Of a stretch of 64,000 bases of DNA, positions 23,137 to 35,080 are shown in pieces. Each line of letters opens with the position of its first letter. Position 1 is the stretch's first letter. Position numbers and translations under genes: made by a program. The stretch lies in the NCBI GenBank assembly GCA_902500205.1, contig GCA_902500205.1_4868.1; one strand, written 5' to 3'. The notes below the pieces were generated by a model, which saw only the letters and a program-made list of their open reading frames with translations, did no database searches and was not told where the DNA came from. This DNA is from Escherichia coli (lineage in GTDB: Bacteria; Pseudomonadota; Gammaproteobacteria; Enterobacterales; Enterobacteriaceae).

Positions 23137-23760
23137 ATGTTAAACTCAGTGGCGCTGGATGGTCCAGATTTTTCTGGCAAATCAACACTCGCGAAAATGA
23201 TTCAAGCGATGTTGCGCTCCGCTGGCGTTAATGTCATCATCGTCAATCACCCGACGAATACCACTGAAGCCGGTATTAGTGCACGCTCTCTGGTTATCCA
23301 GCACGCTTCTAACGAACGCATTGCTAAAGCGATGTGTCTGGATTTCCAATACACGATGGATTTCGTTGTACCAGAGCACGATGTCGTTATTTTTGACCGT
23401 TTTTGTCAATCGACTATTGTCTACCAGGGCGTCGATGGTAAAGGGGAAGTTTTCCGTTCGCGGGTATTAGACCACATTAACGCACCAAAGCTTTACGTGG
23501 CAACCGATGTATCTTACGAAACCGCCACAGAACGCTTTAAGAAGCGCGTAGAGGCCCAGGGCAAGAACTGGGATGATGAGGTACTGACAGCGAAGTATCT
23601 GCGCTCACAGACTGATTGGGACGCGTTACGCGACCACTACCGTTTTGCTTTCCACATCACCACAGATGGCGGCGATAAGTTCCCGCTGATGCGTGTTACG
23701 GCTGACGACGATATAGCGTTACAAGCCGCGCGTATCGTTGAACGTATTCTGGCAGGTTAG
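23137..23760 (+). CDS. tmk: Thymidylate (dTMP/dNMP) kinase-like protein
   Basis: P-loop 'LDGPDFSGKSTLA' and 'DRFCQSTIVYQG' match Tmk signatures; 'ggggaag' SD before ATG 23137; track start 23053 lies inside the terminator. Confidence 0.7.
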   Translation: MLNSVALDGPDFSGKSTLAKMIQAMLRSAGVNVIIVNHPTNTTEAGISARSLVIQHASNERIAKAMCLDFQYTMDFVVPEHDVVIFDRFCQSTIVYQGVDGKGEVFRSRVLDHINAPKLYVATDVSYETATERFKKRVEAQGKNWDDEVLTAKYLRSQTDWDALRDHYRFAFHITTDGGDKFPLMRVTADDDIALQAARIVERILAG

Positions 23761-30788: not shown

Positions 30789-30828
30789 CCCTACCTAACT
30801 TCGGTTAGGTAGGGCTCTTTTTATTTTT
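30789..30828 (+). terminator. Intrinsic terminator (TTCG loop)
   Basis: 'ccctacctaac-ttcg-gttaggtaggg' followed by 'ctctttttattttt'. Confidence 0.85.
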
Positions 30829-30848: not shown

Positions 30849-31301
30849 ATGTTTCAATGTTCAGTCGTCAATGATGCGGAATTGGCCGTGTACAAGCAGC
30901 GCACAATCCGGGCGCTGGATGCTGAAAAACCAGTCGATGTTAAAACGCGTGCAATCATTAGGGCGTTTAGCGAATGGCCGAATATCGCAACCGTTTGGGC
31001 ATTCACGGGAGAAGTTCGCAAAGACGGAGACAAGCTTCGTACACGTAGACACCACAGCTTAACATTTGTGGCAACCGAGGCGGGTCTTAAAGACATTAAT
31101 CATTTATTAGAAGGATGGCAGCCGCACGAATACGGGAAACGTTTTCAGTTAAACTTTACTTGGCTGCGTCAAGAAGGCAACGCGAATCTCTGTTATCCAA
31201 GCTGGACGTTTAGACTCAACTATCGACCTGACCCAGATGTGATGGAAAGAGTGATGGAGCACTGGCTCGCACTCGCAATTTTTACAGAACATAACCATTA
31301 A
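30849..31301 (+). CDS. Hypothetical protein (150 aa)
   Basis: ORF with ATG start. Confidence 0.7.
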   Translation: MFQCSVVNDAELAVYKQRTIRALDAEKPVDVKTRAIIRAFSEWPNIATVWAFTGEVRKDGDKLRTRRHHSLTFVATEAGLKDINHLLEGWQPHEYGKRFQLNFTWLRQEGNANLCYPSWTFRLNYRPDPDVMERVMEHWLALAIFTEHNH

Positions 31302-31329
31302 ATGAAGACACCCTTAAGGAGAATTAAAG

Positions 31330-31800
31330 ATGCCAGTTTTATACGGTGGCGTGGATCTGAAAGTTTTGGATCGGTTTAAACTACGGGCATCCGAAGCGCT
31401 CGTAAACGGTTGGGTTGAGCGTGGGGTACGGGATGCGTGTGAAGTTATTTGCCGTTACCCCGGCGCGACGACAATGTGGTCATGTCATGGACACGGACCA
31501 TATTCTAAAAAGAACACGCCAGGGGAGTTCCATGTAGTGTTTGTTCTTGGTGTCGGCTTTGAGCACAAAGCGCATGAGCTAGTTGCTGAGTTAATGAAAG
31601 CGGATATTCCACCATTGTGGGATTTATCCATGACGAGACTCATGTACCCTGATGATGATTTCGTTTATGACCTCAGCGAAATCACCCTGAAAAACACGTA
31701 TAACGCGTGGAAGATAACGTATCGTTATCTGCACACCGAACAATCCCTTCGTGAAATTCGTAAAGTATTCCACACAGTTTGCAAAAAGGTTTTTAACTAA
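31330..31800 (+). CDS. Hypothetical protein (156 aa)
   Basis: 'ttaaggag' SD before ATG. Confidence 0.75.
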   Translation: MPVLYGGVDLKVLDRFKLRASEALVNGWVERGVRDACEVICRYPGATTMWSCHGHGPYSKKNTPGEFHVVFVLGVGFEHKAHELVAELMKADIPPLWDLSMTRLMYPDDDFVYDLSEITLKNTYNAWKITYRYLHTEQSLREIRKVFHTVCKKVFN

Positions 31801-32498
31801 TGGCTAAGCAAAAGAAACCCCGTAACAAAAAGTATAACCCGAAAGTTGCCACAGAACGTACGGCACACACCGTCGCTGAAAACGCTCTGAATCGTATCAC
31901 GTTTATCGGCAGTTCGATTCGTCGCCTCGGGCCGTACGCGGGCCGTGGTTTTCACTTTACGGCAAGTCCTCGTATTCGTGCTATCGCCACAGATATGTTA
32001 GTCGGTGGGCTGTTCGACCAACCGCGACCATGGCATCTTTGGGTGATGCACCTCACTGAACTCGACACCGGTGAAATTGTAACAGAAACCGCAGTTGCCA
32101 CACTTGACGATTATACTTTGGCGGACTTCTGCGAACACGCTGAGGAGTTAGTTAAATCGTTACGCCCTGAACAGGAAGAGGGGAAGTATTTCGGTTATGC
32201 ATTTGTGGCTGCACCGAACGAGCGGTACGACTTCAAAGCGGAAGAAGACCAGCTCATTGAAAACTTCATGCATTCTGGACTACTTGATACGTCGTTACAT
32301 CTGTCGGAAGAGCAACAGTTCGTTAGTCGTGCAGAAATGGCAAAGTTACTTGTTGGTTATACTCGGAAGTTTGACGTGACCGTTGAACATGTCAAAGAAG
32401 TACCAGAGATTGTGAGCAAGAAAGACGAGGTGGTACTTCCGGTTGACGAGGTCGTCGGTAAAGTAGCGACTGCGATAGGGGCAACAGGGGATTACTGA
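31800..32498 (+). CDS. Hypothetical protein (232 aa)
   Basis: TAATG stop/start overlap with upstream gene. Confidence 0.75.
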   Translation: MAKQKKPRNKKYNPKVATERTAHTVAENALNRITFIGSSIRRLGPYAGRGFHFTASPRIRAIATDMLVGGLFDQPRPWHLWVMHLTELDTGEIVTETAVATLDDYTLADFCEHAEELVKSLRPEQEEGKYFGYAFVAAPNERYDFKAEEDQLIENFMHSGLLDTSLHLSEEQQFVSRAEMAKLLVGYTRKFDVTVEHVKEVPEIVSKKDEVVLPVDEVVGKVATAIGATGDY

Positions 32499-32707
32499 TG
32501 AATCTACGTTGGCCGATCGTGGCTGCTGTGTTGTTTTGTATCTATATCGCCATCAGCACCAGTACCCGCACTGCAGAACGTCGCGAGACCGCAACCAGTA
32601 CGTTCAGAATGTGTATTGATCGAGTAGACCCGAACAATAGCACTTATCCTGACGCTGTGAACGCGTGTCGCAAAGCGGTTGCTGAGATATTGAAAGAGGA
32701 AAAATAA
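32498..32707 (+). CDS. Small membrane protein (69 aa)
   Basis: TM-like 'IVAAVLFCIYIAISTS'; TGATG overlap. Confidence 0.6.
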   Translation: MNLRWPIVAAVLFCIYIAISTSTRTAERRETATSTFRMCIDRVDPNNSTYPDAVNACRKAVAEILKEEK

Positions 32708-32793
32708 TGGAAAACCTCACGCCGATTGAGATAGTGGTGCTATTAACCCTAGGTTACATGGATTTGATTTTAACCCCATTAATTATCGAGTGA
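32707..32793 (+). CDS. Micro-ORF (28 aa), hydrophobic
   Basis: 'agaggaaaaataATG'; MENLTPIEIVVLLTLGYMDLILTPLIIE; TAATG overlap; too short for the ORF track. Confidence 0.25.
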   Translation: MENLTPIEIVVLLTLGYMDLILTPLIIE

Positions 32794-32797
32794 ATAA

Positions 32798-33283
32798 ATG
32801 AAACTACAAACCGAGGTTAAGGAAATACCCGCACAAACCGTGGCATCCGCGAGTGGACTGATACTGTCTATACCGTGCGACGAATTTAAAGACTCGGCCC
32901 GTCCCGACGAAACGATATCGTTAGCATTACGTCGCGGACACGTTTTCTGTGAATTCGACGCGCCTGTGATTAAACCGTGTCAATCGTTCGGGGAAGTAAA
33001 GGCCGCCATTGATCGGATACGTTGTATTGAACTCGTACGCGTTTGCGGTTATGTATCGAACGTCTGCTATGGCGTTGTCGATGGTTACTTTCAACTCCGC
33101 GGTGAATTCACACCACACGGCCCACTCAAAGCGTTAGCGATTGAAGTGATGCGTGCAGGCACCATCACGATTTCTCCACGTATAGAACTCGATGGATATG
33201 GGAAGATTGTTTGCATCCCATCTTTCGATGTTGTGGCAGAAGAAACCCCACGTTATCAATTTCTACATACGGTGAAACAATGA
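32798..33283 (+). CDS. Hypothetical protein (161 aa)
   Basis: ORF; stop overlaps next start (ATGA). Confidence 0.7.
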   Translation: MKLQTEVKEIPAQTVASASGLILSIPCDEFKDSARPDETISLALRRGHVFCEFDAPVIKPCQSFGEVKAAIDRIRCIELVRVCGYVSNVCYGVVDGYFQLRGEFTPHGPLKALAIEVMRAGTITISPRIELDGYGKIVCIPSFDVVAEETPRYQFLHTVKQ

Positions 33284-34287
33284 CAAAGCTTGTTTCGTTT
33301 TCAGCAGGGTTGGATTCCACCTGGATAATGTATCAGCTGTTGTGCAAAGCACCGGCCAATGAAGCGCGACATGTCCGTCCTGCATATTTCTCCATGTGGA
33401 ATGGAGGTAACGCGAACTTCATGGAAATTCTTTGTAGTGTGGCCATTGTTGAACGGCTAATGGACAGATACCACGCACAAACCGATCGTGTTACATGGGC
33501 GGTGCTCGGGGAAGAGAACTTTCCGCCTGTCGTTAGCGCCGGATACGCTAACGGCTGGTCGCCTCTGGTTCAGCAAGGCAATGTTGTTAACGGCCTCGCT
33601 AAACTGATGTGCGACATTACACGCAAACAGCACCACGCCTATGCAGTTATTGGCTGGAATAAGCTAGATGCGTTGGAGAATAGTCTAGAGCTGGGAGATT
33701 GGACATTAGACGAGTACGCACGCTTAAAGAACCTTTATAGCGAACTGATGTATTTCCAAGATCATGCCGGCCGCGTTCCACCGCTTCTAACACCTGCGTG
33801 GGATAAAGAGAAACTGGAAATGTGGCAGGAGTTGCCGGAAGACATTCGTAGATTGGTGCAGGTCAGTAACTACAACAACTACGAATTCGCGATAGACCGT
33901 GAGAATAACATGCTCATCGTTTATGCCCATCCGTCGGCAAAGTCGCAGAATTATCGTAGTCTTGGTATTACACCGTCTGTGGGATGGGAGATTAAAATTA
34001 ACGATGCTTACAGACGGGTATGGTGCTCTGCTCTCGGTAGTGCTATTTCTGCTATGGGTTTGGACGTACCGACTTTTGCTAACTTTAAGGACCCGAAAAG
34101 AAATCACACAACCTTTACGGTAACTGAAGATACTGAAAGACTATTTATCACGTCATTTACAGCAGAAGAGTGGTGCGAATATGCACCGCATTTTAAAGCG
34201 CTTCAGGAGAAAGAAAAAGAGAGAGCGAATAATGCCAAAGCAAGTAAAGCTGTGGACGCTCCAACTGGCGAAGTGGCGGATAGCTGA
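33280..34287 (+). CDS. PP-loop ATP-pyrophosphatase-like protein (QueC/PAPS-reductase superfamily; tentative)
   Basis: N-terminal 'MTKLVSFSAGLDSTW' resembles the PP-loop (SGGxDS) motif; start ATG 33280 (track frame from 33211). Confidence 0.5.
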   Translation: MTKLVSFSAGLDSTWIMYQLLCKAPANEARHVRPAYFSMWNGGNANFMEILCSVAIVERLMDRYHAQTDRVTWAVLGEENFPPVVSAGYANGWSPLVQQGNVVNGLAKLMCDITRKQHHAYAVIGWNKLDALENSLELGDWTLDEYARLKNLYSELMYFQDHAGRVPPLLTPAWDKEKLEMWQELPEDIRRLVQVSNYNNYEFAIDRENNMLIVYAHPSAKSQNYRSLGITPSVGWEIKINDAYRRVWCSALGSAISAMGLDVPTFANFKDPKRNHTTFTVTEDTERLFITSFTAEEWCEYAPHFKALQEKEKERANNAKASKAVDAPTGEVADS

Positions 34288-34615
34288 AAAACGGAATTTG
34301 CCAAAGCTGGATATAACGGTTAAGTCGGGGCTGAAATATTTGGCACCCGACTGGGACTTTCTGATGGACTACAAGAAGTCTGACAAAGGCCCCGACGCAG
34401 AAGCTGCGTATACCAAACGCTACCTGCAGAAACTTAGTCGGTTGTTTGATGAAGACACTGATAAGTTGATAGAGATTCTCCGCCAGGGCGAGGTCGTACT
34501 AATGTGCTATTGCCCACCGGGGAAATTCTGTCATCGCCACTTGCTAGTTTCTTACCTTATTGAAATCGGTGAGTGGTTCGGTTATGAAGTAATTTACATG
34601 GGCGAGTTATCGTAA
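34232..34615 (+). CDS. Small protein with 'CYCPPGKFCHRHLL' motif (DUF488/DUF4326-like; tentative)
   Basis: C-x-C-P-P-x3-C-H-R motif near the C-terminus; alternative start ATG 34181 gives a basic N-terminal extension. Confidence 0.55.
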   Translation: MPKQVKLWTLQLAKWRIAEKRNLPKLDITVKSGLKYLAPDWDFLMDYKKSDKGPDAEAAYTKRYLQKLSRLFDEDTDKLIEILRQGEVVLMCYCPPGKFCHRHLLVSYLIEIGEWFGYEVIYMGELS

Positions 34616-34626
34616 GGAGAGTCATC

Positions 34627-35022
34627 GTGAAATTGATTATGCCTAAAACCGTTCCCAATCAGGATATGGTTACGACTACACTGTTTTCTGAATCATTACG
34701 CAACTCTGTACGTCAGACCGCTTCACGTCTAGACGTGGCAGTTGAAGAACTCGACCCTGAAGTCTTCATGAAGTATGCGTTTATTGCAGAAGGTTACGCG
34801 ATCGCCCTGAGTTATGCGCGGTATGTCGATGACGTGACAGAAGCTAAACGTTATTTAGAAGGCTGTTGTCAAGTTTTCCGTGAAGAAATCACCGAGATGG
34901 AGATGGTTGACCGTGGCTTACCTGAATTTGTAAAGGTGGGTTACGATAAGCTGTTGCAATCCATCGCGGATGAGATCAAACGTCGCGGGTTAACTGTGGT
35001 GCACAGCGCTACACTACACTAA
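34627..35022 (+). CDS. Hypothetical protein (131 aa)
   Basis: 'aaggagag' SD, GTG start. Confidence 0.7.
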   Translation: MKLIMPKTVPNQDMVTTTLFSESLRNSVRQTASRLDVAVEELDPEVFMKYAFIAEGYAIALSYARYVDDVTEAKRYLEGCCQVFREEITEMEMVDRGLPEFVKVGYDKLLQSIADEIKRRGLTVVHSATLH

Positions 35023-35034
35023 CGGCGTACGAGT

Positions 35035-35080
35035 AGGCTACCACACGATCATATGTGTGGTAGCTTATTTTTTTTTGTTT
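35035..35080 (+). terminator. Intrinsic terminator
   Basis: 'gctaccacac...gtgtggtagc' followed by 'ttattttttttt'. Confidence 0.8.

Follow-up and report, generated by a model that had tools for sequence, protein, structure and literature searches.

Two overlapping open reading frames (ORFs) on the plus strand, here called ORF A and ORF B, were found in a stretch of 64,000 nucleotides (nt) deposited as Escherichia coli (contig GCA_902500205.1_4868.1 of assembly GCA_902500205.1), and this whole stretch is referred to below as the window. The region that carries them shares 99.4% identity with Salmonella phage SPLA5c and 98.6% with SPN3US; the two phages are members of Seoulvirus, 240-kb jumbo phages related to phiKZ. 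The features of the two genes, with protein lengths in amino acids (aa), are as follows.

33280-34287, plus strand: ORF A, 335 aa, a divergent PP-loop ATP pyrophosphatase, the same gene as SPN3US gp119 (SPN3US_0119); phrog_8825 (unknown function).
33280-33855, plus strand: PP-loop (HUP/Rossmann-like) catalytic domain of ORF A, residues ~1-192.
33301-33321, plus strand: PP-loop motif SAGLDST, residues 8-14 of ORF A, a variant of SGGxDS placed directly after strand 2-6 of the structural model.
33856-34284, plus strand: C-terminal domain of ORF A, residues 193-335, with beta strands and a long terminal helix; K221, Y225 and G229 conserved.
34232-34287, plus strand: out-of-frame overlap of the 3′ end of ORF A with the 5′ end of ORF B, 56 nt.
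34232-34615, plus strand: ORF B, 127 aa, a DUF488-N3a protein of the rhodanese-phosphatase superfamily, the same gene as SPN3US gp120 (SPN3US_0120) and predicted orthologue of phiKZ gp151.
34505-34537, plus strand: putative active-site motif CYCPPGKFCHR of ORF B, unique in the window.

The open frame of ORF A was found to extend over 33211-34287 on the plus strand, and the ATG at 33280 gives a protein of 335 aa with the N-terminus MTKLVSFSAGLDST. The Met1 residue was found to be invariant in 11 homologues, and the ATG overlaps the stop codon of the preceding gene by 4 nt (ATGA). The frame of ORF B extends over 34181-34615, and the ATG at 34232 gives a protein of 127 aa with the N-terminus MPKQVKLWTLQ. 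This start is supported by homologues free of an overlap with a PP-loop gene, which were found to start 3-5 residues ahead of a conserved WT(L/I)Q strand. The sequence MCYCPPGKFCHRHLL was present in ORF B, with the CxC...CHR core at 34505-34537. The pattern S[GA]G.DST was found once in the six frames of the window against 0.03 matches expected from shuffles, and the pattern C.C.{5,6}CHR was found once against 0.01 expected. Both motifs alone would be weak evidence, and the observation appears to be made solid by the fold match of ORF A and the Pfam match of ORF B. An earlier sequence-only reading of this DNA had described a 335-aa protein with the SAGLDST variant of the PP-loop, overlapping the following gene by at least 56 nt; the protein was recovered as described, and the overlap was found to be 56 nt, from the ATG at 34232 to the stop at 34287.

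ORF A did not match Pfam at E values up to 1, gave no usable match in NCBIfam or PADLOC, and returned noise only when its single sequence was searched against the PDB. A word-indexed search of 5.8 billion proteins yielded 17 homologues, and a full hidden Markov model (HMM) scan of 1.84 billion representatives yielded a family of 46 clusters, in which jumbo phages and phage-like metagenomic contigs were found to account for every member with an identifiable source. The phage records of this family were annotated as "hypothetical protein" in all but two cases, namely Klebsiella phage Miami ("Rossmann fold-containing protein") and Aeromonas phage AerS_266 ("queuosine biosynthesis protein", QueC). 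The AlphaFold model of ORF A, built with 11 sequences, was confident (predicted local distance difference test 80, predicted template-modelling score 0.85) and was found to have the Rossmann-like (HUP) alpha/beta fold that is common to the solved PP-loop members. The profile of the 46 members matched Cap9 (5e-5), QueC and TilS in the PDB with the same loop aligned, and 18 of the 46 members matched the Pfam QueC model weakly. Among the predicted viral structures, the nearest to ORF A after its own family were viral proteins annotated as QueC. The sequence-only reading had proposed structural comparison as the check on its PP-loop assignment, and both the AlphaFold model and the profile matches place ORF A inside the PP-loop fold.

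The PP-loop of the 46 members was found to contain [ST]-[G32/A8/S3/C2/T1]-G(46)-[LV]-[D30/E16]-S(46)-T, with SGGLDS as the family consensus, and the canonical (S/T)GGLDST was found as the N-terminal motif outside the SPN3US clade. The catalytic domain was found to contain conserved E49 and Q98-Q99, followed by the presence of conserved G125-W126-x3-D130-x2-E133 and P172-x-W174-x3-K178. The residues G10, S13, Q98, G125, P172, K178 and K221 were invariant throughout the family, E49, W126, D130 and W174 were near-invariant, and Q99 was kept in 41 of the 46 sequences. No conserved cysteine column was found in the 46 sequences, and the five cysteines of ORF A itself were all unconserved. The C-terminal domain matched no known fold, and its last ~10 residues were found to be disordered. 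The invariant residues, which are retained across members only 14-25% identical, look like a working but remodelled active site. The PP-loop family of gp119 would be an undescribed one, apparently phage-restricted, whose pocket is remodelled and whose C-terminal domain is new.

The catalytic signature of QueC was given in a 2026 study (PMC13329287) as SGGxDS, YxQxHxxE, VPxRN, YPDC and the zinc motif C(x)8CxxCxxC, and it was argued there that preQ0 synthesis is predicted to be lost where the signature motifs are lost. ORF A was found to retain the first of these five as a variant and to lack the other four. The residues Y36...E49 have the wrong spacing for YxQxHxxE, VQQGN was found in the place of VPxRN (QQ for PxR), and GWNKLDALE, with the family form GW-x-K-x-D-x-x-E, was found in the place of YPDC. 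The invariant P172 and K178 sit where QueC and Cap9 have a conserved P...K motif. Compared with QueC, the substrate pocket of ORF A was found to be remodelled, including two conserved tryptophans. As the sequence-only reading had noted for deazaguanine-pathway genes, no queD, queE, folE or TGT gene was found nearby, and the annotation of the region equivalent to the window lists none. Judged by these motifs ORF A cannot be classed as a preQ0 synthase, and it is unlikely to be linked to the deazaguanine pathway because four of the five QueC motifs, the zinc site among them, are missing. The "QueC" label on a few family members is probably a wrong name, since those members are without the QueC catalytic signature. 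The lack of conserved cysteines in the family argues against ORF A being a self-contained thiolase or sulfurtransferase of the ThiI, TtuA or LarE type.

ORF B matched the Pfam family DUF488-N3a (PF22751) with an E value of 7e-12 and 46.1 bits against a gathering threshold of 27, and the general DUF488 model with 28.3 bits against a threshold of 22.2, whereas the DUF4326 model (PF14216) was matched with 17.3 bits against a threshold of 25 (E 0.008). The sequence-only reading had placed this protein in a DUF488/DUF4326 group; the DUF488 half of that assignment stands, and the scores indicate that DUF4326 is a related clade and not a family to which ORF B belongs. The model of the inactive subclade was matched only at E 0.04. 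The residues C92, Y93, C94, F99, C100, H101 and R102 were found to be invariant in 14 homologues of 37-91% identity, so ORF B has the conserved Cys/His/Arg motif of the "active" DUF488-N3a subclade. Relatives of ORF B were found by tblastn in 309 phage records, including phiKZ, 201phi2-1, Goslar, PCH45, RAY and PA7, and the match to PHIKZ151 had 39% identity over 97% of the query. Thomas et al. (2016) paired SPN3US gene 120 with phiKZ ORF151 in their supplementary table of core genes, which does not list gene 119. On the evidence of its sequence, ORF B is the phiKZ gp151 orthologue and an ordinary DUF488-N3a member. When phiKZ gp151 was knocked down by antisense, plaque counts rose about ten-fold, and phage transcription was strongly changed at 30 min (PMC12571901). 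A profile search of ORF B against the PDB turned up no solved relative. ORF B was found in many jumbo phages of the phiKZ-like, nucleus-forming kind, and in most of these ORF A is not nearby. As a separate observation, ORF B weakly matched two PADLOC "phage defence candidate" models, PDC-M45C (E 4e-5) and PDC-M19A (E 1e-3), so DUF488-type domains occur also in candidate bacterial defence systems.

The linkage of the two genes was surveyed in 80 viral-contig loci carrying ORF B (loci are numbered with the prefix L), in which a PP-loop ORF was sought within 10 kb. Such an ORF was found at 6 of the 80 loci and was absent from 74; four of the six belong to the SPN3US/Erwinia clade, and the other two hold weak QueC-like ORFs 2-4 kb away. 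The two genes were adjacent and overlapping in the SPN3US-like phages and in the Erwinia phages L004 and L005 (ORF A 34% identical), and they were adjacent with an overlap of ATGA only in the metagenomic contig L011 (ORF A 25% identical). They were 2.5-2.8 kb apart in L006 and L007, with an AAA-ATPase cassette inserted between them. ORF A was found with no ORF B within 6 kb in L009, L012, L013, L016, Klebsiella phage Miami and Aeromonas phage AerS_266, and ORF B was found without ORF A in L023-L025. In six-frame HMM scans, the complete genome of Pseudomonas phage EL was found to contain ORF A (gp200, 5e-56), followed by the thymidylate kinase gp201, with no ORF B (best E 0.2, no CxC...CHR motif), and phiKZ (277.9 of 280.3 kb scanned) was found to contain ORF B (gp151, 4e-43) with no ORF A (best E 0.087). 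The recurrent neighbours of ORF B at the 80 loci were structural and morphogenesis genes (S80 protease, tail tube and tail sheath), and no recurrent enzymatic partner of ORF B was found among them. A thymidylate kinase was found in place of ORF B directly after ORF A in EL, L012 and L016. The SPN3US order, consisting of thymidylate kinase, helix-turn-helix and Dam methylase genes followed by the PP-loop and DUF488 genes, was found to recur as a syntenic block in related jumbo phages, so the adjacency of the two genes is explicable by common descent. Their pairing was confined to one lineage, made up of the SPN3US-like phages, the Erwinia phages and a few metagenomic relatives.

Further observations were made at the surveyed loci. 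The cassette of L006 (5842-8165) and L007 (6932-9143) was found to contain two genes, for a ~190-aa protein and a ~580-aa AAA+ (Cdc48/ClpB-like) ATPase, and in L004 (1033-3310) a cassette of a ~190-aa protein and an AAA+ ATPase was found upstream of the PP-loop gene and not between the two genes; the cassette behaves like a mobile or rearranged insert. The thymidylate-kinase-like genes that follow the PP-loop gene in L012 (7111-7956) and L016 (7369-8178) encode 269-281 aa and are longer than a plain thymidylate kinase, EL gp201 corresponds to L108 14520-15167, and the "putative thymidylate kinase" gp188 of phiKZ has 352 aa. A DUF488-like ORF that lies 2.8 kb upstream of the AerS_266 PP-loop gene, and that had a weak BLAST link, was rejected as an ORF B relative; it was without CxC...CHR and scored 6 bits against the profile.

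The two genes are among eight plus-strand genes, 30849-35022, that were found to be bracketed by two terminator-like hairpins. Taken together with the survey, this arrangement suggests, with a probability of about 0.6, that ORF A and ORF B encode two separate enzymes which are co-transcribed and translationally coupled in one lineage and are not an obligate two-component system. The pair would then be a lineage-specific juxtaposition of two independent genes. ORF A would bind ATP in its S-x-G-x-(D/E)-S loop in the manner of the N-type ATP pyrophosphatases and would adenylate a carboxylate or carbonyl oxygen of its substrate with the release of pyrophosphate. The adenylate would then be displaced by a nucleophile, for which an amine, ammonia or water would be likelier than enzyme-borne sulfur because the family is without a conserved cysteine, zinc site or Fe-S site. 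The family-specific C-terminal domain probably contributes to the choice of substrate. ORF B would be a cysteine-dependent phosphoesterase or phosphotransferase that acts on a sugar phosphate, a nucleotide or a nucleic-acid end, as predicted at the level of its family. The chemistry predicted for DUF488-N3a is taken from the Pfam name and from what Burroughs and Aravind reportedly set out in an abstract of 2023.

Several findings weigh against two independent enzymes. The adjacency of the two genes persists down to 25% identity of ORF A, and the out-of-frame overlap was found to be conserved in two subclades. QueC-like PP-loop ORFs were found 2-4 kb upstream of ORF B in the lineages L035 and L069, and the negative results for EL and phiKZ depend on the sensitivity of the HMM scans. 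These points would fit some functional link between ORF A and ORF B, of a looser kind. In this clade Ala takes the place of the first Gly of the PP-loop, and a third of the family members have Glu for the Asp, so that turnover of ATP by ORF A is not guaranteed.

The sequence-only reading had suggested that the two proteins may form a nucleotide, tRNA or DNA modification module. In such a module ORF A would adenylate a base or nucleotide and ORF B would remove or transfer a phosphate on the same substrate. It is consistent with two genes that are adjacent or overlapping in one transcription unit, with the retention of the pair where ORF A is only 25-36% identical, with a thymidylate-kinase-like neighbour of ORF A in other lineages that likewise handles nucleotide phosphates, and with the QueC-like ORFs near ORF B in L035 and L069. 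The survey did not bear it out, and a module is considered unlikely, since 74 of the 80 ORF B loci have no PP-loop ORF within 10 kb, EL has ORF A alone and phiKZ has ORF B alone. The whole block is moreover syntenic in related jumbo phages, so that adjacency may reflect shared ancestry, and the annotation of the region equivalent to the window shows no further pathway gene. A bolder form of this proposal, in which gp119 and gp120 would be an undescribed two-protein base-modifying system of nucleus-forming jumbo phages, is very improbable; here the cysteine-free PP-loop protein would adenylate a nucleobase or nucleotide, the cysteine-rich rhodanese-superfamily partner would supply sulfur or phosphotransfer as in a split ThiI, a new modification of DNA, tRNA or nucleotides would result, and the thymidylate-kinase-like neighbour would replace gp120 in the lineages without it.

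There is similarly little chance that ORF A is a PP-loop relic without catalytic activity, acting as a nucleotide-binding regulator or as a structural or assembly factor. The Gly to Ala change of the PP-loop, the loss of the QueC pocket motifs and the location of ORF A beside a protease paralogue, among many virion and morphogenesis genes, would agree with a relic. However, across members of 14-25% identity G10, S13, K178 and a number of acidic and aromatic residues of the pocket are invariant or near-invariant, which is typical of a working active site, and two SPN3US virion-proteome papers make no mention of gp119 in their main text or in the supplements searched. ORF A is hardly likely, either, to be a Cap9/QatC-like protein-modifying ligase or a decoy against deazaguanylation-based host immunity (type IV CBASS, Qat). 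Cap9 keeps the QueC catalytic motifs and the zinc site, whereas ORF A is without them; the genes adjacent to ORF A encode neither a CD-NTase nor a QatB-like partner with an N-terminal glycine, and ORF A also has no PADLOC match. The least probable proposal is a split ThiI-like thiolation (or selenation), in which ORF A would adenylate a nucleobase carbonyl and ORF B, with its three invariant cysteines, would carry the replacing persulfide, given that ORF B lies on the phosphatase-like DUF488 branch and not among the classical rhodaneses, that it mostly occurs without ORF A and ORF A also without it, that ORF A has no THUMP or PUA RNA-binding domain and that CxC-x5-CH could equally be a zinc site.

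The transcription unit that contains the two genes was found to include or border on the following further features.

30789-30814, plus strand: strong terminator-like hairpin upstream of the unit, with an 11-bp stem and a T run.
32798-33283, plus strand: upstream gene, 161 aa, the same gene as SPN3US gp117; phrog_7478; its stop overlaps the ATG of ORF A.
34627-35022, plus strand: downstream gene, 131 aa, phrog_17719 (unknown function), the last gene of the 8-gene unit.
35031-35070, plus strand: strong terminator-like hairpin with a 17-bp stem and a T run, which closes the 8-gene unit.

The head of the unit was found to contain two adjacent plus-strand genes, 30849-31301 and 31330-31800, of 150 and 156 aa, both of which matched phrog_7413 (E 1e-55 to 1e-59), a gene of unknown function that is duplicated here in tandem. 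On the minus strand, the ORFs of the region are at most 106 aa long and gave no sign of being genes, although no individual search of them was made. A thymidylate kinase gene was found ~10 kb upstream in the window, at roughly 23137-23760. No Rfam family was matched in a scan of both strands over 30-37 kb. Several genome records of the SPFM phages (LR5359xx) matched the region only as 34-38 short pieces with garbled predicted proteins, and these assemblies appear to contain many indel errors and to be unsuited to alignments.

The upstream gene gp117 was found to match Peptidase_S80 weakly (E 0.013). According to Ali et al. (2017, PMC5694885) it is a paralogue of the prohead protease that has diverged and been truncated, the real protease being gp245, and the public PHROG-based label "head maturation protease" on this 161-aa protein is probably an over-annotation. 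SPN3US was found to contain an additional ORF of 333 nt, gp118, between gp117 and gp119 (L001 4581-4913), with no Pfam match. The gp118 ORF is missing from the window and from SPLA5c, and a still longer insert was found at the same place in the SPFM phages. It was speculated by Ali et al. (2017, PMC5694885) that gp117 and gp118 jointly make up the full-length protease, and the absence of gp118 would mean that the second half of the supposed split protease is deleted in the present phage. The idea that ORF A might be the major capsid protein, taken from its neighbour's protease label, was ruled out by the fold search; the neighbour in question is the truncated paralogue gp117.

The phiKZ-like jumbo phages that build a nucleus-like compartment are intensively studied, and most of their genes are without an assigned function. 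For SPN3US gp119 and its relatives, nearly all of which are recorded as hypothetical, the results provide a fold and a general chemistry, that of a putative adenylate-forming PP-loop enzyme. The family of ORF A is undescribed, while ORF B is already covered by Pfam, and this small, apparently phage-restricted PP-loop family may carry out new chemistry on nucleotides, RNA or proteins. The gp120 protein is tied to phiKZ gp151, for the study of which SPN3US offers a genetically tractable system. The practical consequence is modest and consists of two concrete enzyme candidates and not of a demonstrated new pathway.

Compared with known systems, ORF A shares the PP-loop with QueC (7-cyano-7-deazaguanine synthase, PF06508) and has no Pfam match of its own. 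Cap9, the QueC-family ligase of type IV CBASS (PDB 9nto), keeps Y/FxQ..E, RN and YxDC together with the zinc cysteines, all of which ORF A is without. Cap9 has ~185 aa and no extra domain, whereas ORF A adds a C-terminal domain of 140 aa; the Cap9 gene adjoins that of its CD-NTase substrate, whereas the neighbours of ORF A are phage genes and ORF B starts with MPKQ. In contrast to ThiI, TtuA, NcsA and TilS, ORF A was found to contain no catalytic cysteine, no Fe-S cysteines and no recognisable THUMP, PUA or TilS C-terminal domain. The combination of a catalytic or Fe-S cysteine with an RNA-binding domain, which marks the thiolases MnmA, ThiI, TtuA and NcsA, was absent from ORF A. The same PP-loop family was found in three other jumbo phages, as gp200 of Pseudomonas phage EL (profile E 5e-56), gp102 of Klebsiella phage Miami and the "QueC" of Aeromonas phage AerS_266 (2e-69 to 4e-70 for the latter two). 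These proteins are ~16-21% identical to ORF A, and their C-terminal regions and neighbouring genes differ, EL having a thymidylate kinase and no DUF488-N3a gene. ORF B, which passes the DUF488-N3a (PF22751) threshold, has the invariant CxC-x5-CHR motif and corresponds to phiKZ gp151, shows no difference of substance from this family and from gp151.

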